The translations under genes and the position numbers were made by a program. Source: an uncultured Gemmatimonadales bacterium (lineage in GTDB: Bacteria; Gemmatimonadota; Gemmatimonadetes; Gemmatimonadales; GWC2-71-9). Taken from it: a stretch of 64,000 nt of DNA. Below the pieces are notes generated by a model. That model did not search any database, had not been told where the DNA came from, and worked only from the letters and a program-made list of their open reading frames with translations. Below, one piece after another: positions 4,557-60,976 of this stretch (position 1 is its first letter; every line of letters begins with the position of its first letter). Location of the stretch: contig CAVZZO010000001.1 of the NCBI GenBank assembly GCA_963779755.1, positions 1 through 64,000 of the forward strand, read 5' to 3'.

Positions 4557-6325
4557 TCATTGACCGTAAAGATCATTGAGCCACTGAGCCCGGATAAGCG
4601 ACTGGCTCCAAGTGCCGGGCTCTGCTGCACCTTCATAGAAGGACGATGGATCAGGGAAACGGGTCACGAAATAGATGCTGGAATTCTCGACTCCTGGTCT
4701 ATCTGGCGCTCGAAACAGTACACGAGGTGGTCAATTCCATTTGCTCTCACTGATCCGTCCACCTTACACGTCTTGACAATATCAGAGACATACTTCCCGG
4801 AATACTGGATCGCATCATCGTCACCATCGGCCTGATTCGAGGCGCCGTCTGGCTCGTTCGGACCGTCAACGAGATCGTAGAAGAAGGCAGCGACGGCACC
4901 CTCTATAATGGAACCATCAGAAGACTGGTTGACCGGCTGATGCTGGCTATTGTAGATCCAACCTGGATAATAGGAGTTGTGTTCAATGCTATAATCGGAG
5001 CCGAATGATGACGTTAAGATTGGCCCGGCGGTGTATGCGGCATGAAAATCCGCGAAGCCCTCTGAGTAAGCACACTTGAGATTGATGGCAGCATTCAGCG
5101 TGTGCCATGAGCAGGTACCAGACGCCGCGTTTCCCCCGAGTGCCTTTTCGTGTCCGGCGTGGCCATACTCGTGAGGCACAACGAATGTGCCATACGAGCC
5201 TGGGACATCTGAAGCACCCAAATAGATCCTGTCCTCACCAGATGTATAGTACGAGCCACTGCCACTTGGAATGTGCACGCCAATGGCCCCTCGACTGTAC
5301 TGCAGCAGTGCACGAGAACGGGACCGTATAGTTCAAAACATTGTAGACTTTGGCCGCCTTGTTGTTCACAAATATGTCGTAGTGAGATCCGTCAGATTCT
5401 CCGCCACCGAAGTAGCCGACGGCACTAGGATTCTGAATATTGACTACTGCATTTGCAAGTGACACAGTGCCGTAGTAGCCAAGGCCATATCCAGTACATA
5501 CGGCGAATTCGCCATTTGCGTCAGATGTTGTGTTAATGCTACCAACCACGTTCCCTGTCCAATCCTCTGTGATGTCACCCTGCACGACTGCCCCCGGGAT
5601 AATCCGAAAGACCGAGGTTGTGTCGAGATCTTGATACATTACTCGCCAGACGTCGCATTCCCCTGTAAGCACAGCTGAACTTGGAGACCCCTGTAGTCCA
5701 CGCCTAGGCTGCTGGCGCCCGAGAACTATTATGGAGGCGTCGTCGAATACCGCAGGATAAAATCAACCGATTCGTGCCCACCTCCCCTGTCTACCAGTAT
5801 CCAAAGATCCTGCCTAACAACACTCTGGATGGCATTTGGCTGGAAGCTGCTAGTTGATCGATCGACCTCCGGACTTGGACGTACCTCTGCAACAACATGG
5901 TAGTAGCCAGGGAATGAAAATCGTGTTTCCCCCGTCGCCGTGAAGACTTCGCCTGAATCCAGCTCAACCCTTTGAGAAAGGACTGGGGATATGACATTGC
6001 TGCCCACAGCAATGGGTCTCGTGCCCTTGGCGGTAGCCTCCCATTCCGGCATGTAAAGCAAGACGTCTGCCTCGGAATGGTCCAAATTGGCTATGACAGT
6101 AATGTCGAAGAAGATGTCTGAATCTGGTGAGTAAGGACCTCGGGTTCCAGTCTGGACCGAATAGCGTTGAATGGGATGAAGGTCAGGGTACTCCCCAAGC
6201 TGGTGTTCGGTAGCTCGTGGCGTCTTCTGACCCGTTGTTGGACCAACAGACGAGTCATGGTGGCAGCTCGTGGTGAGTAGGGCAGTAGCAGTCACGAGTG
6301 CAAGCACCGAAAGAAAATCTTTCAT
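4557..6325 (-). CDS. Lower-GC secreted lipoprotein with HExxH zinc-metalloprotease motif, split by frameshifts
   Basis: MKDFLSVLALVTATALLTTSC lipobox; PHEYGH followed by AYSEGFA (gluzincin-like). ORFs 5729-6460, 5235-5672 and 4664-5278 are collinear, and a further frame continues to a stop at 4557. Confidence 0.6.
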
Positions 6326-6603
6326 AAACCCTCCATCAGAGGAACAACGAGAGACCCTAAAATTGCCTGCTGACGGAGGCTGTACCGAGACCCTTCTTGC
6401 GACAGAGAGGCACTGAAATGCGACACGGTTTTGCCGATATTTCTGGTCGGCTTTGTCCAACCGCGACAGACAATCGAGAAGCGATTGTACGGGGCGGGCA
6501 TTCTACTGCACGCTAGTGTTTCAGTGAGGGCGGATATATGTAACAGGTGGCGGGGATGGTGGGAGAGTGGGCAAACCCAAGCTGAGAGGGATATCGGAAG
6601 CCG

Positions 6604-6747: not shown

Positions 6748-7350
6748 CTAGCACCTCAGCCGCCTCGATCCGATCACCCAGAGCCTGGACTGCTGAAGGA
6801 CGCGCTCCACGAATCCCCGGGTTCGCTGTCGCCGATTGAACTCCTTGACCCCGTAGATGGTCGGATTCACCGCCCGGCCGAGCGTCGTTTCGGCCGGCTG
6901 CAGCGCCTGGTAGAGCGCGGCATAGTCCAGGTCATCCCCGATGATCATCAGGTCCACGTCGCTACCGGCAGTCTCGCTGCCCCTGGCGACCGATCCATAC
7001 ACGAAGGCGCCGGTGATCCGGTCGGCGAACGGCGCCAGCGCGGCCTGGAGCGGCGCGGCCAGCCCCACCGTCTTGGCGATCAGCCCCCGCAATTCCGGGA
7101 AGATCGGCGACGAGGCATTGGCCCGATAGTGTTTCTGGTTACCAATCCGGGTGACGGTCACCAGACCCGCCGCCGCCAGCCGAGTCAGCACGCGATGCAC
7201 CGCGCCGGCTCCGGATCGCGCCATGCGGATCAACTCGGCGCTCTGGAAGCTTCGATCGGGCTGGCCGAACAGAAGCCCCAGGACACGAAGTTCCACGGTC
7301 GAGAACAGCGCCTCTGCGAGGGCGGAGCGGGCACCAGCCTCAATTCCCAT
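6748..7350 (-). CDS. Winged-HTH + minimal nucleotidyltransferase (MNT antitoxin-like)
   Basis: N-terminal HTH region; AFVYGSVARG..SDVDLMIIG (GS..DxD motif). Confidence 0.8.
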   Translation of the reverse strand: MGIEAGARSALAEALFSTVELRVLGLLFGQPDRSFQSAELIRMARSGAGAVHRVLTRLAAAGLVTVTRIGNQKHYRANASSPIFPELRGLIAKTVGLAAPLQAALAPFADRITGAFVYGSVARGSETAGSDVDLMIIGDDLDYAALYQALQPAETTLGRAVNPTIYGVKEFNRRQRTRGFVERVLQQSRLWVIGSRRLRC

Positions 7351-7380
7351 ATTGGGAATAATCATTCCCAAATTGGGAAT
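7343..7380. promoter_or_regulatory. Two tandem palindromes ATTCCCA-N3-TGGGAAT over the MNT start (probable autorepression operators)
   Basis: attcccatattgggaat at 7343-7359 and attcccaaattgggaat at 7364-7380. Confidence 0.65.
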
Positions 7381-7550
7381 GCGCAAGAGCCGCGGTAAGG
7401 CGGTAGCGGCGGTACGAGCGGGAACCCCGATCCATGCTATCGCCGGCCTGCAATACAGATCTCAGACGGCCCCATATTACAGCCAGGCTGAGACACGCCC
7501 CTCCCATCCTCCAATCCCCAATCCTGAATCCTGAATCTCACTCTCTGGCA

Positions 7551-7626
7551 TTGCCACCTCCCTTACTTCGGCATATATTCGGTTCCTGTGAAGCCGAATA
7601 CACACCGAAGCAAGGCAGGTGCCCAT
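7551..7626 (+). promoter_or_regulatory. Orphan copy A of the mutagenesis-operon promoter/operator
   Basis: TTGCCA-N17-TATATT; TTCGG-N6-TTCGG-N11-CCGAA-N6-CCGAA; ends GCAAGGCAGGTGCCCAT like copies B and C, but no gene follows. Confidence 0.6.
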
Positions 7627-7645
7627 ATTTTCCTGGGTCCTTCCG

Positions 7646-8855
7646 TTACCCCTTTCCGTCCTGCACCGGCTCCCCTGCCTCCAGCGCTTCCAGCAGTTCC
7701 AGCAAGCCACTCGCTTCCCAGGATTGATTCTTCTTCGAGGTCGCAAGCGGGATCAACACTCCGGCCGTCTGTAACTGATCCAGCGCCTGATATATCGGTA
7801 CCCTGGACCGTCCGGTCGCCGCCGCCGCGACCGGGGCCGTGATGACCGGGTGCGCCGGGAGCACGTCGATCACCGCCCACGCCGCGGCGTCCGCCCGCGG
7901 GGCGCACCGTCGCGAGCCGCGTCACGCCAGGACGCCAGCAGCGCTCTCGACTCGGCGAGGTACGCGCCGGCGAGGTGCGCCGAGCGCGCCGCCGCGGCCG
8001 CAAAGTGCTCCAGCCAGCCCGACCACGCCGCCTCCCCGGTAGCGCGTCAGCCCCGCGATGTACTCGATCCCGCGAGACGCCAGCACCACGCTGATCGGCG
8101 GCACGTACGCCGGTGCCAGGCCGCGCCGGCGCAGGACCACGTGGATGAGCGCCCGGCCGGTGCGGCCGTTGCCGTCGTCGAAGGGGTGGATCGTCTCGAA
8201 CTGCGCGTGAACCAGCGCCGCCGAGACCAGCGGCGGGAGACGACTCGCTCGACGACCGCCTGCACAGATCCGTCCAGGAGCCTCGGCCACGTCCTCCGGC
8301 GGGCGGCGGCACAAAGTCGGCCCCGCACGGATTGTAGTCGTTCCCGCCGATCCAGTTCTGGTCGGCACGGAAGCGGCCGGCAATTGCTTTTCTTGTATCC
8401 TGCTCCATAAGGCGGCGATGGATAGCGAGAACTTCCGGTTCACCGAAGTGGGGTACCGCGGCAGCCTCACTGATTGCGGTTTCCATGGCGGACATGTTGG
8501 CCAGGATTTCGGCCGCGGTCTGGCTCCTCCTCCCGCCTGTCTCCATTCGGGCCTCGGCCCGGGCAAGTTCCCGAACACCCATCTGCATGCCCTCGACCTT
8601 CGAGGACGCAATGGACTCCGTCCTGAGGAGGAGCCGTGCCAAAGGAACGAGAGCCGGCTGTGCCGTAGTATTGAGCGCCCTGATGGCAGCTTCCGCCTCC
8701 GAAACGAGACCGGCCGCCTCAGCGGGAAGGCTCACGTTGAGCAAGCGAAGCTCATCCGGTACGAATGCTTCGTACCGGCAGGCCCGTTTGTACCTCGCCG
8801 GAGCGTCAATCGTTGGGTTGTATTCCCACGTTCTCGGGACGAGGCGACCTGGCAT
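7646..8855 (-). CDS. Fic family protein with C-terminal HTH, frameshifted
   Basis: LLRTESIASSKVEG; HAQFETIHPFDDGNGRTGR Fic motif in a second frame; C-terminus in a third frame (7646-7873). Confidence 0.85.
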
Positions 8856-8943: not shown

Positions 8944-9024
8944 CTTTGACCGGCTTCATAGTAGGGCTTCCTGCCATCCATCGGAAGGGCCTTTTTCCCC
9001 AATCCTGAATCTTCCTCCCCCGCA

Positions 9025-9098
9025 TTGACGCCCGTCTCGTCTTCGGCATATATTCGGTTCCCGGAAGCCGAATATCCACCGAAGCAAGGCAGGTGCCC
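9025..9098 (+). promoter_or_regulatory. Copy B of the mutagenesis-operon promoter/operator
   Basis: TTGACG-N18-TATATT; TTCGG-N6-TTCGG-N10-CCGAA-N6-CCGAA. Confidence 0.65.
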
Positions 9099-9254
9099 AT
9101 GCCCCCCGCTCCCTCCCCCTCCCCCCGCCAGCCCGCTGAGAGCAATCCGCTAACCTACTACCGGATAAAGGTTTGTCCCGAGTGCTCCGGGCCGGTGGTG
9201 CGGAACTCCGGGTGCATGCACTGCCTGCAGTGCGGGTGGGGGAGATGCGAATGA
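9099..9254 (+). CDS. 51-aa Zn-ribbon protein (copy 1, no insertion)
   Basis: Manual translation: MPPAPSPSPRQPAESNPLTYYRIKVCPECSGPVVRNSGCMHCLQCGWGRCE; ATGA overlap with the next ORF; below the ORF-track size cutoff. Confidence 0.7.
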   Translation: MPPAPSPSPRQPAESNPLTYYRIKVCPECSGPVVRNSGCMHCLQCGWGRCE

Positions 9255-9685
9255 AGGCGGTACGGCGGTACGGCGGTACGGCGGTAGGGGAGCCGAAGGA
9301 AGACTCCCGGGTCGCGGTACGGCGGTACGGCGGTACGGCGGTAGGGGAGCCGAAGGAAGACTCCCGGGCCGCCAGCCAGCCGGACCTGGACCCGGAAAGC
9401 TCGATGGGGCGCTCCCGGAAGGCGGGAGGGTGGGAGGGCGGGAAGGCGGGAAGCGAGGCGCCAGTCGAGCGCCGAGGTCATCCTTCGCTCCGGGCCGCCA
9501 GCCAGCCTGAACCTACTCCGGGCCTCCGCGCAGGGCGCTCCCTGCCGGTCCTGGAAGATGGGAAAGGCGCGCTGGCGGTTCGGGGCGAAGCGCCTCCCGC
9601 CTTCCCGCCTTCCCGCCCTCCCGCCGCTGTTCCTACCGCCGTACCGCCCTACCGCCGTACCGCCGTTGTTCCTCCCGCCTTCCCG
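9251..9685 (+). pseudogene. Truncated duplicate of the radical SAM 5' repeat-rich leader
   Basis: Near-identical to 14485-14690 (AVRRYGGTAVGEPKEDSR x2, GRSLPVLEDGKGALAVR), with extra repeat tracts. Confidence 0.7.
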
Positions 9686-10269
9686 CGGGGTACGGTGCCG
9701 CGCGGCCCCCGGGTTGTGCCCACGGGCCCTAATCACGTCTGGGCCATGGACTTTGTGCACGATACCCTGGCCGACGGCCGCGCCATCCGGGTGCTCACGC
9801 TGATCGACAGCTGCACCCGAGAGTGCCTGACCCTCACTGTCGCCCCGCGGTTCACGGGGGCGGACGTCGCGCGGATCGTGGGGGCCGTCGGGGCGGCCTG
9901 CGGTCTGCCGCAGCGCATCGCGGTCGATAACGGGACGGAGTTTACGTCGAAGGCGTTCGACGCGTGGGCCTACTGGAACCACGTGCAGCTCGATTTCAGC
10001 CGCCCCGGCAAACCGGTGGACAACTGTCTGATCGAGGCGTTCAACGGATCCCTGCGGCGCGAGTGCCTCTCGCAACACTGGTTTGCGTCCCCGCACGAAG
10101 CCCAACAGATTCTCTCCCAGTGGCGGGAGGACTACAACAACGTTCGGCCGCACACGAGCTTTGCCCACCGCTCGCCGGCCATGCTGACCCAGGGTGGGCA
10201 CTACATCCCAGGCCCCAACCGCCTGCCGAACTGCGACTTCTAGTGGTCCTACTTTGGGGAGACCCGCCA
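9685..10269 (+). mobile_element. IS3-family remnant (OrfB integrase core and right end)
   Basis: PNHVWAMDFVHD..LIDSCTRECL..DNGTEF..PGKPVDNCLIEAFNGSLRRECL..YNNVRPH DDE core; IS3-like terminus ending ..CA at about 10269; OrfA/HTH missing. Confidence 0.85.
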
Positions 10270-10343
10270 TCCTGACGAGGAGTCCAACAATAACTGGAGC
10301 AGGTTTCGGGGGTCAGCTCAAGTTCGCGCGTGATCAACGAACC

Positions 10344-10760
10344 TTAGCTAGTATATGAACTCAAGAAGACGAAATTCTTGTCGAATACCACATTTATGCC
10401 CCATTCCCCTGCCAGCTCCAGTGGATCGCGCACTACGTATACAGTGTTAACTTTGATTACGTAGACATGACGCCCACCAGGTGGTGGCGCGGTGCCTACT
10501 GCTTGTTGGTAGGCAGCCGCGGCCTGGACACATACCGCCTCATCGGTCACGTAAGAGATCTTGTTGGCTTGGGTGGAGGGGATTCCATACCTCTGACGCC
10601 GCGCAACGTACTCGGAGTCCGAGCTCGTAGCCACCAGAGTGAGCCACGCGATATCATTAGCGCTCACGTCGTCCGCTGGGAGACAAGTCTGAGCATGTAG
10701 GGGGACCGCAAGTCCACTCAGCACGGCGCACATGATTACGCCGATGAGTCCTTTTGCCAT
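10344..10760 (-). CDS. Small secreted protein with two Cys in the mature part (possible immunity/partner)
   Basis: GGAGG RBS; signal peptide MAKGLIGVIMCAVLSGLAVPLHA-Q; starts 17 nt after the stop of the 491-aa gene. Confidence 0.65.
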   Translation of the reverse strand: MAKGLIGVIMCAVLSGLAVPLHAQTCLPADDVSANDIAWLTLVATSSDSEYVARRQRYGIPSTQANKISYVTDEAVCVQAAAAYQQAVGTAPPPGGRHVYVIKVNTVYVVRDPLELAGEWGINVVFDKNFVFLSSYTS

Positions 10761-10777
10761 ACCACCTCCAGAAGTAG

Positions 10778-12253
10778 TTACCACGTGCAGCTCGAAGTGG
10801 CGTGATCCCAGACGTTAGGGTTGGCAAGTTGCTCGCTGAGCGGGGTGCCGGGATCAAGCCGCCAAACGCGCGTTTTATCAAAGGTGTACATGGGGAAGAG
10901 CGGATTACCGAGAGCCCCCAGGTCGTTGTTCAAACGGCTCAAAGCGACCCAATCGTTCCCGCTCCCACCCCCATTCGGAAGGGGCTCAAAGTCTGTAGGA
11001 ATGATTGGCCTCGTGCCACACACCGTGATCGAATCACCATCGAAATACGGATGAGTATGGTACACAGCTATCAGGATCTCTCCAGGGTTACCGGCCGGCC
11101 GTAAGTATTCTCGACCGCAGTTATCGGCTGTAATCAGACCGCCGCTGGGATCAAACCGGATATTGCCGGTTACGGTATCTCGCCATACATTGCCACCCTG
11201 TTCGATGCGATTCCCGATGTTCGGATCACCTGGGTTAGAGTTTGCCATAGCCTGCTGTAAGAGGCTCCGGAAGGCGGGGTTGTCGAGGAGGGAGTCCCCT
11301 GTGATACAGTCAGATGTAACGCTCAAGTCATCGTAGGCAACGTAGTCATTGTCAGCGGGAACAAGTTGAATCCGGACGATTCCTACCCCACTCACTGTTA
11401 CCAAATCAGCCGTATTTACACCTGGTTTACGGTCATAGGGGACGTTCACCGATCCCACGACCGAGCCCGCCGCATTATAGGCAACAACCTGATTGCCTCT
11501 AAAATCAGAATCATAGACGGTGATCGTAACACTCCTCAGGGGAGCGGAAGACAGAATGTCAATCGGGTGCGACGGTCCGGTAAATGAGTCACTTTGAAAG
11601 CCGCCAAATGGTCCGCCGGTAACATAGGGAGAAATGTCGATCGTAATATTGCACCACGTTCCGGGCGCAGGAATAGCACAACTCCCGGGTTGCGCTGACG
11701 ACATCTGCACCCTTGGAGTCTTGATCCATGGGGTGTTGGCACTAACGATCTCGCCACCGAAAAGGTGTTGTGATAGCCGAAACGCACCGTCAGGTACGGT
11801 CGTCAGCGGCCGATTCATCTCATACCTTAGCGTAACTGATTCAGTGGTCGCGAATCGGAACACCGTCTCACCATTTAGCAATGAGCCAATGGAATATTCG
11901 TGCTCCCCAAGAGCGGAACTGACGTAGATGCGCAATGATGCGACCGCCTGCTGGAATGGCGGGTCAGCCTGCATTTGAAGAACAACGCTGTCCCCCCTCC
12001 TTCCGGCGATGGTAAACTCGGCTAGTGCCGTTAACGCAGTTGCCGAGTCCCCATTGATACCAACCCTGAATGGCCCACCGTCCTCAGCAATCAAACAGAC
12101 CATTGAACATGAGGGTCCCGCTGCCTCAGGCGAACCGGAGGTTGGTCCTGAGACAGTCTCGGTGTCTGAAAGGCACGCGGCCAGAGTAAGGGTCGTTAGC
12201 ATTGCCAATGAGGCTGTTGAAACACTCCATTGAGCCAAGGGGAATGCTTTCAT
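10778..12253 (-). CDS. Lower-GC lipoprotein with C-terminal JAB/MPN-like domain
   Basis: LTLAAC lipobox; C-terminal IEQGG..IAVYHTHP..SGND pattern. Confidence 0.6.
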   Translation of the reverse strand: MKAFPLAQWSVSTASLAMLTTLTLAACLSDTETVSGPTSGSPEAAGPSCSMVCLIAEDGGPFRVGINGDSATALTALAEFTIAGRRGDSVVLQMQADPPFQQAVASLRIYVSSALGEHEYSIGSLLNGETVFRFATTESVTLRYEMNRPLTTVPDGAFRLSQHLFGGEIVSANTPWIKTPRVQMSSAQPGSCAIPAPGTWCNITIDISPYVTGGPFGGFQSDSFTGPSHPIDILSSAPLRSVTITVYDSDFRGNQVVAYNAAGSVVGSVNVPYDRKPGVNTADLVTVSGVGIVRIQLVPADNDYVAYDDLSVTSDCITGDSLLDNPAFRSLLQQAMANSNPGDPNIGNRIEQGGNVWRDTVTGNIRFDPSGGLITADNCGREYLRPAGNPGEILIAVYHTHPYFDGDSITVCGTRPIIPTDFEPLPNGGGSGNDWVALSRLNNDLGALGNPLFPMYTFDKTRVWRLDPGTPLSEQLANPNVWDHATSSCTW

Positions 12254-12387
12254 TTGGCCTATCCCTATCCCTTGTCAAGAGACGTGCCATGTGCGAGGAA
12301 CAGCCACCAGGCAGTGGCGCGGCAGTGGCTGCTGCTACCTGTCCTTCATCGGATTACGAGGCGCGGAAGTCGCTGACCCAGACAGTC

Positions 12388-13466
12388 TGATATCAAGTTT
12401 GTAGTGCAACACTGAGCCTCATCGTGCATAGCATTCCTCCGGGGTGCGGTAGAGGAGGCGCTTCCGGGGTCGGCGGTTGAGTTTGCGGGCGAGGCGATCA
12501 CACGCGGCCTGGGTGAGGTGCGCCATAGAGTGGCCTTTCGGGAGGTACTGCCGCAGCAGGCCGTTGGTGTTCTCGTTGGTTCCGCGCTCCCAGCTGTGGT
12601 GCGGCGTGGCGAAGTAGAAGCGCGTGGCGGTCTCCCGTTCGATCGCCGCGTAGTCATGGAACTCGGTGCCGTTGTCCACGGTGATGGTGCGCACCGGGCG
12701 AGCTTCCCGATGAATCAGCTGCGTCGCCCGGCGCGTGACGGCGGTGGTCGTCCGCTGGTGGAGTTGGCCGAGCATCAGATAGCCGGTCTTCCGTTCCACC
12801 AGCGTCAGCACGCAGGGGCCGGCCTGTCCCGCGCCGAGGACGGTGTCGCCTTCCCAGTGACCGACCTGGCTGCGGCCTTCGATGATCGCAGGCCGCTCCG
12901 TGATCATCCGCTTCCCGGCCAGGCGGCCCCGGCTGTCGTAGCGCCCGTACCGTTTGCGGCGCTGCTTGCGGGCGCCGCGGAGGTGCTGGTAGAGCGTGCC
13001 GCCGTCCGCGCGGTCCGCCCAGACGTACCGATAGATCGTCTCGTGACTGATGGCGAGGTGTCCGTCCGCGGCGAGGCGGCCGGCGATCTGTTCGGGGCTC
13101 CAGTCCTCGCGCACCAGGCGTTCCACCTCCGCCCAATCCGTGGCGGTGAACCGGGTGTTGCGGCGCGAGTGGCTCCGCCGGCCCCGCGCGTACCAGTCGG
13201 CGAGCTGGGGGCGGTAGCCCCCGTCGTGGTGGGTGCGGTTGCGCCGGACCTCGCGGCCGATGGTGCTGCGGTGGCGACCGAGGAGGCGCGCGATGGCTGC
13301 CGCCGTCAGCCCCTGTCGGCGAAGCAGGCCGAGGGTGTACCGTTCAGCGGCGGTGATCTGGCGGTAGTTCATGGTCGGCTTCCTTGTCTTGGCGGACAGA
13401 GAAGTCTACTAGCTGTCAGATCACCGCTTTCGTCGCCTTCCGTTGTTGCACTTAGTATATGAATCC
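12388..13466 (-). mobile_element. IS30-family insertion sequence
   Basis: Imperfect terminal IRs sharing AGTGCAACA/TGTTGCACT flank the transposase. Confidence 0.85.
12419..13372 (-). CDS. IS30 transposase
   Basis: WSPEQI, ISHETIY, GHWEGDTV, TVDNGTEF, WERGTNENTNGLLRQY, LNRRPRK. Confidence 0.95.
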   Translation of the reverse strand: MNYRQITAAERYTLGLLRRQGLTAAAIARLLGRHRSTIGREVRRNRTHHDGGYRPQLADWYARGRRSHSRRNTRFTATDWAEVERLVREDWSPEQIAGRLAADGHLAISHETIYRYVWADRADGGTLYQHLRGARKQRRKRYGRYDSRGRLAGKRMITERPAIIEGRSQVGHWEGDTVLGAGQAGPCVLTLVERKTGYLMLGQLHQRTTTAVTRRATQLIHREARPVRTITVDNGTEFHDYAAIERETATRFYFATPHHSWERGTNENTNGLLRQYLPKGHSMAHLTQAACDRLARKLNRRPRKRLLYRTPEECYAR

Positions 13467-13857
13467 GCGCAGCCTAAGAAGGCAGGGGTTGGCACTCAAG
13501 GGCTGGTTTGCGACACCGAAGGACCGATTTGCGACATAATGAGAACCGGAGTTAATAATGCCGCAGAAAGCTCTCCTAGTGTCCGTGCCGCGACACATTA
13601 AGCGACCAACATGACTCAGTTGACTGTATTCGGAGGAGAACTGCGGATTCCGCCGTAAACCGTCCTCAAGAGAAAGGTCTCAATGTTCGGGGGACTAGTC
13701 ATGAGGTCGCAACCACAGAGAACTGTGGCTCCTCTGCTAAGCGAAGCCCGTCATTCATTACCCAGCTCGCCCACTGGGATTCGCCGAGGCGAGAGCGACC
13801 CTAGTCAAGACTCCAAGGGTACTTGATGGTGGCCGTCGGCCGGATTTCAAGATGCGG

Positions 13858-14165
13858 TCAATCTGCCGCCGGCTTACCGGCCGCTGCGGCTACCCGTACC
13901 GCCCCCAGCGCTCGCAGCGTCGGGAGTATCTCGATCTCCCACTCTCCTTGCCCCCGCTGTTCGTAGCGTTCTTGGACCTCATCCCACTCTGCCACGTCCT
14001 GCCGCTCCACGTCTTCCAACCGGTTGGCCTCTTTCCCGATGTGCTGAATCCACGAGGGGCTGACGTGACGACGGCCAAGGAGCCCAGTCGTCTTGGCGTC
14101 GCAGGGTCGTCCATTGGGGCCCAGGCTCTTGGACTCCGGGTGTCTGGCATACTCACGTACAACCT
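13858..14165 (-). pseudogene. Gene fragment truncated at promoter copy C
   Basis: ..EYARHPESKSLGPNGRPCDAKTTGLLGRRHV..HIGKEANRLE.. looks protein-like but has no own start; resembles the C-terminus of mobile-element PolB-like proteins (recall only). Confidence 0.4.
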
Positions 14166-14178
14166 CCCCTCCCCCGCA

Positions 14179-14251
14179 TTGACGCCCGTCTCTACTTCGG
14201 CATATATTCGGTTCTCGAAGCCGAATATCAACCGAAGCAAGGCAGGTGCCC
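14179..14251 (+). promoter_or_regulatory. Copy C: promoter/operator of the intact mutagenesis operon
   Basis: TTGACG-N18-TATATT; TTCGG-N6-TTCGG-N9-CCGAA-N6-CCGAA overlapping the -10 and start region. Confidence 0.7.
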
Positions 14252-14488
14252 ATGCCCCCCGCTCCCTCCCCCTCCCCCCGCCAGCCCGCTGACCGCCCGA
14301 GTGGGCGGAATGGGCAGAGTGGGCAGAATGGGCTGACGAAAGCCCACCAGATCCGTCACAGGTCGCCGGCGGAGACCAACCACCTAACCTACCACCTGAT
14401 AAGAGTTTGTCCCGAGTGCTCCGGGCCGGTGGTGCGGAACTCCGGCTGCATGCACTGCCTGCAGTGTGGATGGGGGAGATGCGAATGA
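14252..14488 (+). CDS. 78-aa Zn-ribbon protein (copy 2, with a 27-aa in-frame insertion)
   Basis: CPEC-x9-CMHCLQC-x4-C; ATGA coupling to the radical SAM start at 14485. Confidence 0.7.
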   Translation: MPPAPSPSPRQPADRPSGRNGQSGQNGLTKAHQIRHRSPAETNHLTYHLIRVCPECSGPVVRNSGCMHCLQCGWGRCE

Positions 14489-15894
14489 AGGCGGTACGGC
14501 GGTACGGCGGTACGGCGGTAGGGGAGCCGAAGGAAGACTCCCGGGTCGCGGTACGGCGGTACGGCGGTACGGCGGTAGGGGAGCCGAAGGAAGACTCCCG
14601 GGCCGCCAGCCAGCCTGAACCCGATCCGGGTCTCCGCGCAGGGCGCTCCCTGCCGGTCCTGGAAGACGGGAAAGGCGCGCTGGCGGTTCGGAGCGCTTCC
14701 TCGACCCTCTCGACCCCCTCGACCCCCTCGACCCGCCGAAGGGCACTGGGCGAGCAGCTCATGCTCCAACCCGAGTGGACCCCATCAGCCCGCGCCCCCT
14801 GGATCACCCTGGACACGCGCCAGAGAGGCACCCGCTTCCACCAGCTGCCGGTCAGGTCGGTGCTGAACCCGCCCTCCACTACCGGCATGGGCTTCTGGTC
14901 GCTCAATCCCTATGTGGGGTGTGAGTTCGGGTGCTCGTATTGCTATGCGCGGGATACGCATCGGTGGACTGTCGAACGGGCGCATGAGAAGATGCGGCCG
15001 GTCGCAACTGGGGTCGAGGGGGTCGAGGGGGTCGAGGGAGTCGAGCGGATTGCAGCCGAAGGCTCCGAAATGGTCGAGAAGCTCGAGGGGTGCTCGACCT
15101 CGACCCCCTTGACACCCTTGACCCCCTCGACCGAGCTCTTCGAGCACGAGATCCTCGTAAAGACAGGAGCCCCTGAAGCACTACGCCGCTCGCTCGACCC
15201 AGCGAAGCTGGGCGAGGCGAGCCTCGTCATCGGCACCGCCACCGATGCCTATCAGCCCGCCGAACGAAAGTTCCGCATCACTCGGCAAATTTTGGAGGCG
15301 CTGACGCATTACCGCGGGCTCTCCATCGGGCTCATCACCAAGTCGCCCCTGATCACGAGAGACCTGGATCTGCTGCAGCAGCTGTCGCAGATCCATGAGG
15401 TGAGCGTCAATATCTCGATCGCCACGCTGGACGCGAAGCTGGCCCGCCGTCTGGAGCGCCGCTCGCCGGTGCCGCGGGCCCGGCTCAAAGCACTCAAGAA
15501 GCTCACCGACGGCGGCATCCACGCCGGCGTCCTCATCGCGCCCATCCTCCCCGGCATCACCGACAGCACCCCCGCCCTGCGCGCCCTGATGCGCTCGGCG
15601 AAGGCGGCCGGCGCGTGCTACGTAGCGGGCTCGCCACTCCGGCTGGGGGAATCGATCCGGCAGATGTTCTTCCCCATGCTGGAACGGGAGTTCCCCCACC
15701 TGGTGGAGCGCTACCGGCGCCACTTCGCGGGGAGAGACTACGTGGCGAAGTCGTACCAGCAGGCGCTGATGGAAAGGCTGCGGGGGCTGCAGGAGGAACT
15801 GGGCTTCCCCGTGGCGGAGAGCCGACGCAGGCGGGAACAACTCGAGGGCCGCCGCCGGCGGGAAACCAGAGATCACCAACACAGCATGATCTAG
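14485..15894 (+). CDS. Radical SAM protein, SplB-like/Rv2578c-type (DNA-repair associated), with repeat-derived insertions
   Basis: SLNPYVGCEFGCSYCYAR (CxxxCxxC), IGTATDAYQPAE, ITKSPLITRDLD, APILPGITD. Confidence 0.9.
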   Translation: MKAVRRYGGTAVGEPKEDSRVAVRRYGGTAVGEPKEDSRAASQPEPDPGLRAGRSLPVLEDGKGALAVRSASSTLSTPSTPSTRRRALGEQLMLQPEWTPSARAPWITLDTRQRGTRFHQLPVRSVLNPPSTTGMGFWSLNPYVGCEFGCSYCYARDTHRWTVERAHEKMRPVATGVEGVEGVEGVERIAAEGSEMVEKLEGCSTSTPLTPLTPSTELFEHEILVKTGAPEALRRSLDPAKLGEASLVIGTATDAYQPAERKFRITRQILEALTHYRGLSIGLITKSPLITRDLDLLQQLSQIHEVSVNISIATLDAKLARRLERRSPVPRARLKALKKLTDGGIHAGVLIAPILPGITDSTPALRALMRSAKAAGACYVAGSPLRLGESIRQMFFPMLEREFPHLVERYRRHFAGRDYVAKSYQQALMERLRGLQEELGFPVAESRRRREQLEGRRRRETRDHQHSMI

Positions 15895-15896
15895 TC

Positions 15897-16397
15897 AACT
15901 GCAAACCGCGAAGACGCAAAGAACCGCAAAGAGCGCGAAGAAAGACTTTTTTTGAAAACAGCAAAAAGAAATCGCAGTTCTTCGCGTGCCTTCGCGTCTT
16001 CGCGGTTAGCAGTTCCGATCGCATAGAATGCTCCGATCTGTCCTTAACCGGGACTACGTAACACCGTCATATCAGCAGGCGCTGATGGAAAAGGCTGCGG
16101 GCGCTGCAGGAAGAACTGGGCTTCCCCGTGGCGGAGAGCCGACGCCGCCGGGAGCAGCTGGAAGGCCGCCGGCGACGAGAAACCAGAGATCACCAGACCT
16201 GTATGATTTAGTAACTGCTTAACCGCGAAGACGCGAAGGACGCTAAGGAACGCGAAGAAAGGCCTTTGTAAACTGCAAACCGCGAAGACGCGAAGGACGC
16301 AAAGAGCCGCGAAGAAAAAGCTTTGTGAAAAAAACACCAAAAAACAGCTGTTCTTTGCGACCTTCGCGCCCCTTCGCGTCTTCGCGGTTAGGCAGTT
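15897..16397. repeat. Two ACCGCGAAGACGCGAAG-type hairpins flanking a duplicated gene junction
   Basis: AACTGC-N-ACCGCGAAGACGC..A-rich loop..CTTCGCGTCTTCGCGGTT-N-GCAGTT at 15897-16014 and 16213-16397. Confidence 0.85.
16028..16211 (+). pseudogene. Chimeric remnant: imuB start (MLRSVL) fused to a diverged copy of the radical SAM 3' end
   Basis: 16052-16211 parallels 15736-15894; 16028-16045 parallels 16411-16428. Confidence 0.8.
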
Positions 16398-16410: not shown

Positions 16411-17709
16411 ATGCTCAGATCTGTTCTCTTTATCGACCCGCCCGCGTTCTGCACCACCGTCGAGGAACTGGTGGCGCCGGCGCTGCGCGCCCGGCCCATC
16501 GTGGTCGCGCCGCCGGGGGCCGACCGCGCCCTCGTCCTGGCGCTCTCCGCCGAGGCGGAACGGGCGGGGATCACGCGGGGGATGGCGCTCAGGCAGGCCC
16601 GGAAACGCTGCCCCGACCTGGTGATCCTCCCGCCCAATCCCCGCCTCTACGCCCGCGCGTCCCGCGCGCTGCACCAGGTGCTGGCCCGCTATGCGCCCAT
16701 CATCGAGCCGCGCTGGTACGGCCACGCCTTCCTCGACCTCACCGGCACCGGCCGGCTCTTCGGCCCGGCGGTGGATGTGGCGGAGAGGATCCGGAGGGAG
16801 GCGGGCGAGAAGCTGCGGCTGCCGCTTTATGTAGGAGTTGCCGGGAATAAGCTCGTCAGTGAAGCATCGGTACGGGCGGTACGGCGGTACGGCGGTATGG
16901 CGGTAGCCGAGCGAACCTCGAGCTCCGGTTCCCCCTTCCCAACAGGGAAGGGGGACAGGGGGTTAGGTCGAGGAGGACGGCAGGACGGCAAGACGGCAGG
17001 ACGGCAGGAGCTGTTTGCGGTACCGAGTGGCGACGAGGCGCAGTTCCTCGCGCCGCACCCGACGCCGGTGCTTCCCGACGTGCCGGAAAAGCTCCGCATC
17101 CGCCTGGAGGAATACCAGCTCGACCTGATCGGCGAGATCGCATCACTCACCGAGCCGCAGATCGGGTCGGTGCTGGGAACGCCCGGCATCCGGCTGCTCT
17201 ACCACGCGCGCGGCATCGACCCTCGGCCGGTGCTGCCGCCGGCGGTCAAAGCCGAATTCCAGATCCAGCACACCCTGGCGACGGACACCAACGACCTGGG
17301 ACACCTGCACACGCTGCTCCGCCGGATGACCGAGCGGCTGGGCCGCCGGCTGCGCCGGCGCGGGCTCTCCGCCGGCCGGCTCAGTGTCACCGTCACCTGG
17401 AGCGACTACAAGGACGCGAGCCGGGGGGTCCCGCTGGCGCCCGCGATGCTGGATGTGGAACTGTGGAACGCCGCGCGACGCGCGTTCACCCTGGCCTGCG
17501 TGCGGCCCGTGTCGGTGCGGATGCTGGGGGTGAGGGTGGATCGGCTGACGGAGTCTGATGTGCAACTCGACCTCTGGCGCGATCGGGAAGAGGTCGAGGG
17601 GGTCGAGAAGGTCGAGAGGGTCGAGGTCGAAAAAACCCGGAGCCTCCAGCGCGCGGTGGACCGGATCCACCGCCGCTGGGGCGAGCGGAGCCTCCTGAGC
17701 CGGGTTTAA
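16411..17709 (+). CDS. imuB: Catalytically inactive Y-family polymerase (ImuB-like)
   Basis: DinB-like fold, but motif I reads FIDPPAF and the SxDE catalytic motif is replaced by WYGHAFLD; clamp motif QLDLW; upstream of dnaE2. Confidence 0.85.
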   Translation: MLRSVLFIDPPAFCTTVEELVAPALRARPIVVAPPGADRALVLALSAEAERAGITRGMALRQARKRCPDLVILPPNPRLYARASRALHQVLARYAPIIEPRWYGHAFLDLTGTGRLFGPAVDVAERIRREAGEKLRLPLYVGVAGNKLVSEASVRAVRRYGGMAVAERTSSSGSPFPTGKGDRGLGRGGRQDGKTAGRQELFAVPSGDEAQFLAPHPTPVLPDVPEKLRIRLEEYQLDLIGEIASLTEPQIGSVLGTPGIRLLYHARGIDPRPVLPPAVKAEFQIQHTLATDTNDLGHLHTLLRRMTERLGRRLRRRGLSAGRLSVTVTWSDYKDASRGVPLAPAMLDVELWNAARRAFTLACVRPVSVRMLGVRVDRLTESDVQLDLWRDREEVEGVEKVERVEVEKTRSLQRAVDRIHRRWGERSLLSRV

Positions 17710-23223: not shown

Positions 23224-23386
23224 CCCCCTGTCCCCCTTCCCAATTGGGAAGGGGGAATCGAGACCCGAGCCTCACTCAAAACCGGCGGCAGCTACTCGCG
23301 TAAGATGCCACGATGACAGCCTGACACAGCAAAGCCGAACCCCCAGTGCCCCCTTCCCCTTGGGGGAAGGGGGACGGGGGTTAGGT
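23219..23386. repeat. Two opposed CCCCCTTCCC-N4-GGGAAGGGGG-ACAGGGGGTTAGG elements; the first supplies the dnaE2 stop codon
   Basis: Same element as at 16931-16967 (imuB) and 20308-20345 (dnaE2). Confidence 0.8.
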
Positions 23387-23428
23387 CCCCGATTCCCGAT
23401 TCCAGATTCCTTCACAAAGGAGGCACCG

Positions 23429-23929
23429 ATGCCGTCACCCAAGGAGCAGTTCCTCACCGCCTACGAGAAGGAACACGCCACCACCATGAAGGTCCTGCGG
23501 GCATATCCCACGGACAAGCTCGATCTGCAGCCGCACAAGATGTGCAAGACGGCGCGTGATCTGGCGTGGGTCTTCGTGATGGAGCGAAAGCTGGGAACCG
23601 CGGTATGGCAGGATGCCTTTGCCGCCGCGCCGCCCTCGGGCAGCCCGTCGCCGGTGCCGCAGAACTGGGACGAGCTGCTGGCAGCCCTGGAGCAGGCGCA
23701 CCAGGAATTCGCCGAGCTGGTGCGCTCCACCCCGGACGAGAAGCTGGATCAGACGGTGCGGTTCTTTACCGGAGCCAAGACCATGGGCGATATCCCGCGC
23801 ATCCAGTGGGCCTGGTTCCTGCTCTGCGACCAGATTCACCACCGGGGGCAGTTCTCGATCTATCTGCGAATGGCGGACGGCAAGGTGCCGTCCATCTACG
23901 GGCCGAGCGCGGACGAGCCGTGGAGGTAA
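23429..23929 (+). CDS. DinB/YfiT-family (DinB_2) metal-binding four-helix protein
   Basis: AAGGAGG RBS; DQIHHRGQFSIYLR..VPSIYGPSADE. Confidence 0.85.
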   Translation: MPSPKEQFLTAYEKEHATTMKVLRAYPTDKLDLQPHKMCKTARDLAWVFVMERKLGTAVWQDAFAAAPPSGSPSPVPQNWDELLAALEQAHQEFAELVRSTPDEKLDQTVRFFTGAKTMGDIPRIQWAWFLLCDQIHHRGQFSIYLRMADGKVPSIYGPSADEPWR

Positions 23930-24060
23930 AAACGGGGATCAGGGATCGGGAACCAGGGATCAGGATACTCGCGCCCTGATTCCAGATTCCTGATCCCTGA
24001 TCCTGATCCCATCGACTATCTTCCTGCTCTCCACCGCTCACGCCCGCACCGGAGCCCCAC

Positions 24061-60527: not shown

Positions 60528-60976
60528 CGGCTGCGACCGTCGCGGTGAAGGCCATAGGCCTTGAGCCGCCGCCACAGGGTGGTGCGGCTGATCCCCAGGT
60601 GCCGGGCGGTCTCCGCCAGCTTCCAGTTATTGGCGTCGAGCGTGCGGACGATGGTTTCCTTCTCCCGCTCCGCCAGCGTGGTGGGACCCGCCGTCCCCGG
60701 CAGGAACATGGCCTCGCCCAGCTCCAGCGAGCCGACCCGCAGCGGCCGGAGCCTGCCACCCATGGCGGCGAGGCGCGGCAGCAGATCGCGCGAAGGTTCG
60801 CTCAGGTCTACCGTATCGCCCAGTGCTTCCCGGGCGGGCTGATTGGCATAGATCACCCGGCCTTCCCGGTCGAAGACCAGGACACCCTCGCTGAACCCGT
60901 CCAGCAGGGACTTGGCAAGCGGCGAAAAGACCGACGGCATCGGCGTGGTACCGCTCGAACTCGAGAGGTCTGGCAT
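60509..60976 (-). CDS. PAS + Fis-type HTH protein
   Basis: EGVLVFDREGRVIYAN; TARHLGISRTTLWRRLK. Confidence 0.8.
   Translation of the reverse strand: MPDLSSSSGTTPMPSVFSPLAKSLLDGFSEGVLVFDREGRVIYANQPAREALGDTVDLSEPSRDLLPRLAAMGGRLRPLRVGSLELGEAMFLPGTAGPTTLAEREKETIVRTLDANNWKLAETARHLGISRTTLWRRLKAYGLHRDGRSRWAHSA

Follow-up and report, generated by a model that had tools for sequence, protein, structure and literature searches.

Two copies of an operon head in a Gemmatimonadales genome that differ by 81 nt built around a short tandem array

Introduction

How does a short tandem array, of a kind dispersed over many loci of a bacterial genome, come to lie inside a gene? The question is raised by the window analysed here, the first 64 kb (64,000 nucleotides) of contig C1 of an uncultured Gemmatimonadales bacterium, in which the 5' end of an operon is present twice and the small open reading frame (ORF) at its head is 81 nucleotides (nt) longer in one copy than in the other. 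The genome (4.23 Mb, 68.5% GC) is assembled in four contigs, two of them longer than 1.8 Mb. A reading of the letters alone (the sequence-only reading) had described the two forms as an empty and a filled allele, and the site as a hotspot that is used repeatedly by different families of repeats. The analysis described here points, as the probable answer, to paralogues and not alleles, to an insertion in copy 2 that arose by template switching and not by the arrival of a mobile element, and to a duplication breakpoint as the reason why the copies differ after the residues GALAVR.

Two copies on one contig

Copies 1 and 2 (Table 1) lie in direct orientation on one contig, approximately 5.2 kb apart, and their right flanks differ. 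They are identical at 429 of 450 ungapped columns, a homology above chance, and their pairwise alignment, which runs from 9014/14168 to 9587/14695, is broken by three indels of 81, 1 and 126 nt. Measured from start to start, the repeat blocks are 5153/5154 nt apart at first, 5234 further on and 5108 at the end, which are the steps expected for a gain of 81 nt and a loss of 126 nt. The in-frame difference of 81 nt at the residues PRQPA, which the sequence-only reading had reported, is thus found both as one gap in the MAFFT alignment (14289-14369) and as a step of 81 in the spacing. The alignment that it had proposed sets the junctions and reveals, as the only candidates for a target duplication, a 'GA' and an imperfect repeat of 9 of 12 positions.

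The 1-nt indel lies inside the operator palindrome. The 126-nt segment, present in copy 1 only, can be placed at 9364-9489 or, equivalently, at 9382-9507; it is bordered by an 18-nt direct repeat, CCGGGCCGCCAGCCAGCC, it contains an array of GGAAGGCG (9417-9453), and just past it there are four more mismatches between the copies within 10 nt. The two 57-nt modules of the spacer are 100% identical in both copies.

Since both forms are found at two places on one contig, they are paralogous duplicates on one chromosome and not alleles: the test for an allelic polymorphism, that is, for both forms at one locus, failed, and the two loci are separated by an IS3-type transposase fragment (IS, insertion sequence), two low-GC genes and an IS30-type transposase. 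The possibility that two strain variants of one locus were chained into one contig by the assembly is very unlikely. In its favor are the richness in repeats of this region, its position at the contig start, and public reads that yielded no contig across both copies; nevertheless, 5 kb of unique sequence stand between the copies, copy 1 has its own right junction into the IS3 fragment and its own mirror arrays, the genome is in four contigs (two above 1.8 Mb), and three short contigs of run X1 match positions 10352-10583, 11534-11684 and 13900-14050 without any difference.

The arrangement seen in copy 2 is taken as the ancestral one, because a homologue of its radical-SAM gene was matched at 85 of 91 related loci (among the 45 matches listed, nearly all of these homologues start at or downstream of the small ORF and on the same strand), and because of the left neighbour that is found in relative L014. 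There, the gene upstream of the small gene is the orthologue (66.5% identity, 230 amino acids) of gene 6748-7386(-) of the window, which adjoins a partial third copy of the promoter and operator. The vicinity of this promoter stub (7539-7626) and gene 6748-7386 probably marks the ancestral left junction. Copy 2 is therefore the working head of an intact operon, and copy 1 is a truncated duplicate fused to the IS3 fragment, with which its spacer shares one open frame (ORF 9173-10243).

The duplicates appear to be remnants of the entry of foreign low-GC DNA and IS elements into the promoter region. One route to them is a tandem duplication followed by insertions, and another is the integration, facilitated by homology, of a fragment from another strain. 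In its full form the second route makes copy 1 xenologous: it would have arrived with the low-GC island by homology-facilitated illegitimate recombination, and the differences between the copies would be strain divergence. This is unlikely. It agrees with the position of copy 1, next to IS fragments and to a block of 53-58% GC, and with the patchy divergence between the copies, which goes locally from 0 to approximately 28%. A low-depth contig of 170 nt from a wetland metagenome covers 9032-9200 with 8 differences and in the empty form; it fits the same idea and, as regards the polarity of the 81-nt difference, is only a weak hint. Two scans of metagenome contigs for close relatives, by an exact 26-mer in the first case and by a degenerate coding pattern in the second, gave 0 matches each. 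On the other hand, the 57-nt modules are 100% identical although such repeats evolve fast, which argues for recent common descent or for conversion within one genome. The polarity of the 81-nt difference is the same under transfer and under duplication.

Polarity of the 81-nt difference

In copy 1 the residues PRQPA are followed by ESNPLTYYRIKVCPEC, while in copy 2 they are followed by DRPSGRNGQSGQNGLTKAHQIRHRSPA and only then by ETNHLTYHLIRVCPEC; the first 15 residues are identical and 27 extra residues come after them. The junction of the gap slides by 2 nt ('GA'), and the borders of the extra segment show, besides this exact ambiguity, the 9-of-12 imperfect direct repeat (CCCGCTGAGA.. / CCGGCGGAGA..).

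The sequence-only reading had taken the longer form as the derived one and had named outgroup homologues with the 27 residues as the observation that would overturn this. These residues are present in 0 of 12 aligned orthologues. Another way of looking at the polarity is to consider how far the first Cys codon lies from the operator, which in 87 distinct sequences goes from 57 to 178 nt: copy 1, with 90 nt, is typical, whereas copy 2, with 171 nt, is the third longest. Given that no aligned orthologue carries the 81 nt, and that the spacing is ordinary in copy 1 and extreme in copy 2, the difference is, judged against the relatives, a derived insertion specific to copy 2, situated in the proline-rich N-terminal linker of the small protein, whose length is variable. 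The opposite proposal, namely that the 27 codons are ancestral and were lost from copy 1, has in its favor nothing but the symmetry inherent in any indel, and the same two observations, the orthologues and the spacing, make it extremely improbable.

The copies differ in the linker in other ways as well. Of the 21 mismatches that separate them, 8 are concentrated in the 29 nt directly 3' of the insertion (permutation p = 0.0011 for at least 8 of 21 in any 29-nt window). The linker has five amino-acid replacements, whereas the three differences in the Zn-ribbon part of the ORF are all synonymous. In line with the polarity given above, it is copy 2 that departs from the NPLT of the family, with NHLT.

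A genome-wide class of 7-9-nt arrays

Arrays were called with Tandem Repeats Finder (TRF), and a third-order Markov genome was used as the control. With a score of at least 40, the genome holds 298, 183 and 209 arrays of periods 7, 8 and 9, respectively (690), and the control 1, 5 and 10 (16). The number of units has its mode at 3.5-4.0 for 7- and 8-mers, with a sharp drop past 4.5, and is bimodal for 9-mers (2.5 and 3.5); a strict rule of four units was not seen among the arrays with a score of at least 30 and at least 85% matches. The arrays of this locus have 3.6-4.6 units. Only 25% of the 7-mer arrays lie inside the ORF mask, as against its coverage of 77%, and 61% of the 9-mer arrays lie inside genes. 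A GGG run is found in around a third of the well-matched arrays (at least 85% matches: 172/492, 122/351 and 196/511). An inverted partner of the same family lies within 500 nt of 274 of 1792 arrays (median gap, 48 nt), in the set with a score of at least 30, which includes noise.

The core of the insertion holds 3.6 units of TGGGCAGAA/GAGTGGGCA. TRF describes 14302-14333 either as 3.6 units of period 9 (86% matches, score 46) or as 1.9 units of period 18 (score 61), and the core contains four GGG tracts with loops of 6 nt. A pattern search for its family, [AG][AG]TGGGC[AGT]G, retrieved 17 arrays genome-wide; the flanks of the 16 that lie outside the insertion are unrelated. The core has head-to-tail units of 7-9 nt, about four of them, and belongs to a family that is present at many unlinked loci; it is a member of the genome-wide class, whose arrays far exceed what composition predicts. 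One of the other loci lies in the window, in gene 58296-60575(-), where the sequence-only reading had already seen the 9-mer: a long in-frame array at 59556-59636 belongs to the same family and is read in the same frame as the insertion. The description of that gene as Omp85-like holds in part, given that a PF01103 match exists but is weak (E 8.8e-5; 22.6 bits as against a cut-off of 24) and is surpassed by the match to DUF5686.

How the insertion may have arisen

One explanation for an insertion with a recurrent core would be a small mobile element. The full 81-nt unit has a single copy in the 4.23-Mb genome, its other matches cover just nt 10-45, and its head and tail have no match longer than 19 nt in the genome. 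An unusual fold was not found for the 81 nt (DNA fold z -1.04, equalled by 30 of 200 shuffles; only local stems of 5-6 bp). Three tests for a mobile element, that is, recurrence with defined ends, terminal inverted repeats or a stable hairpin, and an associated transposase, all failed. With regard to the last one, the genome has three Y1-transposase genes (PF01797), two of which are identical copies, each between short hairpin-forming sequences as in IS200-type elements. None of the three is flanked by arrays of period 7 or 8; only a weak 9-mer array (score 34) is situated at approximately 650 nt from one of the copies. A discrete mobile element is thus not what the 81 nt are, and a miniature element of the MITE, REPIN or RPE (Rickettsia palindromic element) type was ruled out, since only the 35-nt core recurs, without shared flanks.

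Growth in place is another explanation: the array would have expanded by replication slippage from a chance seed, with nothing imported. Tandem arrays do expand in that way, small local repeats are found in the linker of many orthologues, and the imperfect direct repeat of 9 of 12 positions flanks the insertion. However, nothing at the site in copy 1 resembles the 9-mer and could have served as a seed, 46 of the 81 nt lie outside the 35-nt repeat core and are not repetitive, and the alternation of AGT and AAT units seen in the insertion is common to arrays at other loci (C1:1022125 and C1:286668). Slippage is, for these reasons, an unlikely source.

The probable reading remains that of paralogues with a template-switched insertion. 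A one-off template switch during repair or replication would have used a different array of the family as the template for a short one, adding filler sequence. The patch of eight substitutions could stem from the same event, from a later relaxation of constraint on a redundant copy, or from failed conversion beside the heterology. The insertion would have survived owing to a length that is a multiple of three and to a tolerant linker. At its own breakpoint, copy 1 would have gained arrays by inverted copying of its upstream arrays, giving rise to a long hairpin at the IS3 junction.

Several observations weigh against this reading or against parts of it. No donor of the array was found, the best other arrays being 33/35 identical, and no source was found for the 46 nt that lie outside it, so that template switching is inferred and not shown. 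For the substitution cluster, old divergence left unerased by gene conversion beside the heterology is an equally good explanation, as is strain divergence if copy 1 came by transfer. The 126 nt could have been deleted from copy 2 between the 18-nt repeats instead of inserted into copy 1, and the spacer is found in no outgroup. The class itself is less sharply defined at a lower threshold: a score of 30 gives 3350 arrays in the genome and 1304 in the Markov control, so that around a third is expected by chance. Finally, the public reads (best runs, 0.06 and 0.05 of sampled words) gave short contigs, none of which spans both copies.

The arrays after GALAVR

Past ..GGCGGTTCGG(G/A)GCG ('GALAVR') the homology between the copies ends, and different repeats follow, just as the sequence-only reading had described: CGCCTTCC and TACCGCCG, two 8-mer arrays present in copy 1 only (9591-9666), and CCTCGACCC in copy 2. 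The arrays at the junction of copy 1 mirror, in mirrored order, the arrays located 150-350 nt upstream in the same copy, with which they form inverted repeats (I1-I7) that are 86-100% complementary. Positions 9591-9625 pair with 9417-9453, inside the 126-nt segment, and 9632-9666 pair with 9256-9288 and 9314-9346. When folded as RNA, 9250-9700 forms one nested hairpin (z -12.97; 0 of 100 shuffles as good). The two families that are paired at this junction have around 25 and 15 arrays in the whole genome, and the chance of both pairings, inverted and mirrored, is of the order of 1e-4, a rough estimate that was not computed by a tool. In copy 2, the array directly past the end of homology (14699-14734) has a 94% complementary counterpart within the radical-SAM gene (15011-15045), and that counterpart in turn pairs with 15098-15132 as an in-frame hairpin (fold z -6.1).

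The arrays after GALAVR are best read as mirror copies templated locally at the junction, and not as independent hits on a hotspot. A variant unit, GGCGGTAGG, was considered as proof of local copying and discarded, as it is present in 10 of 26 arrays of its family.

The claim of hotspot reuse is overstated, given that the GALAVR point is the end of the duplication and that its arrays mirror local ones; what stands is that the linker takes up different repeats across lineages. In L006 and L016 these are a hexamer, in L045 a 21-mer (2.6 units) and in L076 an 8-mer (2.8 units), and the tolerance of a disordered linker explains them as well as targeting does. The whole proposal, an empty and a filled allele at a hotspot hit repeatedly by families of small insertable repeats, is improbable. 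The derived state of the insertion, the multi-locus repeat that it carries, the short repeats of other lineages in the same linker and the different arrays past the same point in the two copies speak for it. It is opposed by the two loci on one contig, by an 81-nt unit that lacks a second copy and defined ends, by the coincidence of the GALAVR point with the end of the duplication, by the mirroring between the arrays of copy 1, and by the Y1-transposase genes, none of which has flanking arrays of period 7 or 8 (only the score-34 9-mer array near one copy).

Copies 1 and 2 differ by exactly three changes that bear arrays: the 81-nt insert, the 126-nt segment and the junction arrays. Two of these three mirror each other, which points to templated copying. 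A more ambitious and rather doubtful proposal is that the pair of paralogues is a before-and-after snapshot of the birth of arrays, which would not be spread by an element but templated, during the repair of breaks and junctions, from a distant array or from the same molecule folded back on itself. Under this proposal, the 81-nt insert with its mutated 29-nt neighbour is a case of the distant template, and the arrays found only in copy 1, in mirrored order exactly at the truncation junction, are a case of the folded one and may form a hairpin with a stem of approximately 200 bp. If it were true, the hundreds of mirror-paired arrays of Gemmatimonadales would be the scars of a particular repair pathway, and the intragenic arrays tolerated by-products of it.

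Leaving that proposal aside, the event in copy 2 is a real but fairly ordinary insertion of a repeat into a floppy part of a protein. Its value is that one birth of a dispersed short tandem array in a coding linker is documented, with a polarity that comes from outgroups, and that it is not the hop of a defined element.

The small gene and its operon

Both small ORFs end in the same Zn-ribbon, VCPECSGPVVRNSGCMHCLQCGWGRCE, and the columns C, P, C, C, C, C, G, W and C are invariant in 88 aligned sequences. The ORF was matched in 27 of 41 relatives (including G014, an unpublished genome) and in 209 confirmed stretches of genome_contigs, nearly all of them titled Gemmatimonadales or Gemmatimonadota. 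A word-indexed protein search (5.8 billion) gave one match, a 51-residue protein that its source names a reductase alpha chain. The invariant columns, the synonymous differences in the ribbon, the 27 relatives and the 209 stretches indicate that the small ORF is, as judged by conservation, a real gene, which is conserved but has hardly ever been annotated.

NF006417, which has 759 positions, is matched at positions 726-758 by residues 20-52 (E 4.3e-6, 25.3 bits as against a cut-off of 961). The small protein resembles, to judge by this match, the C-terminal tail of a B12-dependent ribonucleotide reductase but is no reductase: a class II enzyme (NrdJ) was ruled out, as the ORF is free-standing, has 53 or 80 residues and is similar to the tail only, whereas the reductase has approximately 750-950 residues. 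Loderer and co-workers are said to have described, in 2017, the tail of the B12-dependent enzyme as a Zn finger that serves its turnover. A search of PDB sequences with the 88-sequence profile found nothing below E 0.05, only a weak IBR/RING-like resemblance. The predicted complex of the small protein with the radical-SAM protein scored 0.00, with an uncertain fold of the partner and no controls, and is neutral with regard to binding.

Upstream of the small ORF, the TTGAC hexamer and the palindrome are conserved in relatives, several of which keep only the pair of right half-sites. The full operator with four sites is found only at 7567-7609, 9042-9083 and 14196-14236 in the 4.23-Mb genome; the half-site pair occurs 37 times per pattern (both strands summed), versus approximately 25 expected by an estimate from base composition that was not computed by a tool. 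A LexA box is unsupported, as the full motif is confined to the three copies of the promoter. An RNA hairpin was ruled out, since the spacers of TTCGG and CCGAA do not co-vary and several relatives keep the right pair only. A scan of the whole window at the Rfam gathering threshold gave 0 matches, so the upstream palindrome is no known RNA. The palindrome, which overlaps the promoter, suggests a site for a regulator of its own more than an SOS box of global use.

The small ORF is followed by genes for an SplB-like radical-SAM protein, a Y-family polymerase, a quinone oxidoreductase (on the opposite strand), Tag and an error-prone polymerase of the DnaE2 type, and judged by this content the operon is a conserved DNA-damage operon of Gemmatimonadales. 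SplB-like radical-SAM genes are known in neighbourhoods of the SOS type, according to the part of the source that was consulted (PMC3765255). The radical-SAM protein of the window scores 222.9 bits against NF038135 (cut-off 430), in two stretches split by a repeat insertion, and has the invariant C-x3-C-x2-C motif. Its conserved sequence begins at approximately 14755 (QLMLQPEW; QLxLxPEW). The ATG at 14485 overlaps the stop of the small ORF (ATGA), as happens in L006 and L009 (GTGA and ATGA, respectively), and the frame is open through the 270-nt repeat spacer, which makes 14485 to approximately 14755 a candidate translated leader. What emerges is a conserved small Zn-ribbon gene that has its own putative operator, that heads a DNA-damage operon of Gemmatimonadales, and that gene callers miss almost without exception.

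Neighboring DNA and further arrays

Table 1. Position of the features described in the text, numbered from the first letter of the window (strand., not oriented).
Feature	Position	Strand	Basis
Partial third copy of promoter and operator, ending at the start-codon position	7539-7626	+	Aligns to 9014-9100 and 14168-14253
Copy 1 of the duplicated operon 5' end (promoter, putative operator, small ORF, repeat-built spacer)	9014-9587	+	Pairwise alignment; direct repeats D1, D3, D6, D7
Putative operator palindrome of copy 1, TTCGG-N6-TTCGG..CCGAA-N6-CCGAA, just past a TTGAC -35-like hexamer (~9024)	9042-9083	.	Conserved in relatives
Small Zn-ribbon ORF, copy 1, 53 amino acids, 'empty' ancestral-like form	9093-9254 (alternative start 9099)	+	ORF list, alignment
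Pair of 57-nt modules, both made of a GGCGGTAC array (3.8-3.9 units) and a tail	9256-9371 (copy 2: 14490-14605)	+	TRF, alignment
126-nt segment of copy 1 only, with both 18-nt flanking direct repeats (9364-9381, 9490-9507)	9364-9507	+	Alignment, TRF
Junction arrays of copy 1 only: CGCCTTCC (9591-9625), TACCGCCG (9632-9666), CCTCCCGCCTTCCCGC (9671-9686)	9591-9686	+	TRF; inverted repeats I1-I7
IS3-type transposase fragment, 5'-truncated	9722-10243	+	Pfam: rve E 5.6e-19, rve_3 E 5.6e-22
Two genes without family match, in a block of 53-58% GC (genome 68.5%)	10344-12253	-	Family search, composition
IS30-type transposase	12419-13372	-	Pfam: HTH_38 E 9.5e-13, rve E 2.6e-8
Copy 2 of the duplicated segment, running on into the intact radical-SAM gene	14168-14695	+	Pairwise alignment; direct repeats
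Small Zn-ribbon ORF, copy 2, 80 amino acids, 'filled' form	14246-14488 (alternative start 14252)	+	ORF list, alignment
81-nt (27-codon) in-frame insertion	14289-14369 (equally 14291-14371)	+	Single MAFFT gap
Insertion core: four units of the G-rich 9-mer [AG][AG]TGGGC[AGT]G	14299-14335	+	TRF
Substitution cluster directly 3' of the insertion: 8 mismatches, 5 amino-acid changes in the linker	14376-14404	+	Alignment, permutation
SplB-like radical-SAM gene (Rv2578c/PA0069-like)	14485-15894	+	PF04055 E 2.1e-13
CCTCGACCC 9-mer array, 4.0 units, directly past the end of homology, copy 2	14699-14734	+	TRF
Inverted 9-mer arrays inserted in frame as a hairpin, in a variable loop of the radical-SAM protein (VEGVEGVEGVE...STPLTPLTPST)	15010-15132	+	Orthologue alignment, TRF
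Long in-frame AGTGGGCAG array (SGQ repeats; SGQSGQ...)	59556-59636	-	Pattern search, frame check

The two genes at 10344-12253 are probably acquired DNA. Blocks of 53-58% GC are found at 5000-6500 and 10000-12500, beside an hsdM fragment, IS fragments and broken genes, and the start of the contig looks like an island of acquired, decaying DNA. A gene of the Fic family at 7646-8855(-) is split over at least three frames (Fic_N at 7563-8855, the Fic core at 7922-8611 and a C-terminal piece at 7646-7873), and it is either a pseudogene or the result of sequencing errors. Further downstream, the 3' end of the radical-SAM gene is duplicated in tandem together with the repeats that follow it (15736-15950 and 16052-16267, 81-83% identity, spacing 316-317 nt), which again speaks for a locus where local duplications happen easily.

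Other arrays were seen in and around the same group of genes. The Y-family polymerase gene (16411-17709) has in-frame 8-mer and 9-mer arrays at 16868-17009 and 17592-17625, which include the GGCGGTAC family and, near the 3' end, an array of GGTCGAGAG. Right after the stop of a DinB-family gene (23360-23929), two inverted AGGGATC arrays of 4.3 and 5.4 units, 10 nt apart (23935-24010), would form a terminator-like hairpin built of repeats. Outside the window, at C1:709211-710053 of genome G000, 9-mer arrays of AATCTGCGT and AATCTGTGT alternate in orientation with gaps of 108-123 nt and one of 233 nt, which suggests that they are the ends of a larger repeated unit. In relative L026 (4109-5000), a gene of the DinB superfamily lies between the small Zn-ribbon gene and the radical-SAM gene, bracketed by arrays of the GGAATGGCG type, and this arrangement indicates that both the repeat class and the plasticity of the spacer extend over the order.

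Comparison with known systems

Repeats that resemble those of this locus in one respect or another are found in several groups of bacteria. The heptamers known in cyanobacteria as short tandemly repeated repetitive (STRR) sequences form families dispersed over many loci, and their origin is unexplained; the arrays described here are likewise dispersed short tandem repeats, but in a different phylum and in a GC-rich genome. Rickettsia palindromic elements and intragenic repetitive extragenic palindromic (REP) sequences place repeat DNA in frame at permissive sites of genes, where it adds loops or linkers. Such elements are discrete, conserved over their full length and form hairpins, whereas the 81 nt recur only as a 35-nt array and have an ordinary fold. 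REPINs, described by Bertels and Rainey in 2011, are reportedly pairs of inverted short repeats that form intergenic hairpins and are associated with RAYT transposases. Inverted pairs of repeats are common to both cases, but here there is no fixed repeat sequence, and the Y1 genes have no flanking arrays of period 7 or 8.

The closest parallels are found in three other genomes or groups of genomes. In Geobacter metallireducens, as far as the consulted sections of the report go, arrays of four hepta- or octanucleotide units occupy dozens of loci (49 in the case of GGGACCG), both between and within genes, several classes are paired on opposite strands, and they have been interpreted as sites for regulators or as RNA elements (Aklujkar et al., 2009; PMC2700814). 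On that description, the two systems have in common arrays of approximately four units of a short word, many loci, positions between and inside genes, and pairs on opposite strands. They differ in that the family studied here is a 9-mer with 17 loci, its host belongs to Gemmatimonadales, and a pair of paralogues gives the state before and after. They differ as well in that a regulatory or RNA role has been proposed for the Geobacter arrays, while those described here are known from their sequence alone.

The GGGNATC heptamers of Xanthomonas and Nostoc, according to the portion of the paper used here, are G-rich, spread over the genome, preferentially of four units and rarer in coding regions (Rehm et al., 2015; PMC4692102). 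Within the limits of that portion, the G-rich units found genome-wide, the mode of 3.5-4 units (7- and 8-mers) and the under-representation of 7-mers in ORFs are shared features, whereas many units of the present genome have no GGG runs and its 9-mers are often intragenic (61%). With respect to Gemmatimonadota, a limited literature search retrieved, by title and abstract, nothing relevant on arrays of 7-9 nt.

To the question of where the dispersed 7-9-nt arrays of Geobacter, Xanthomonas, cyanobacteria and the genome described here come from, copies 1 and 2 bring a matched pair of sequences. What this locus adds to the known classes of arrays is precisely that pair of paralogues, which fixes the polarity of the change and shows mirror copying at a junction.

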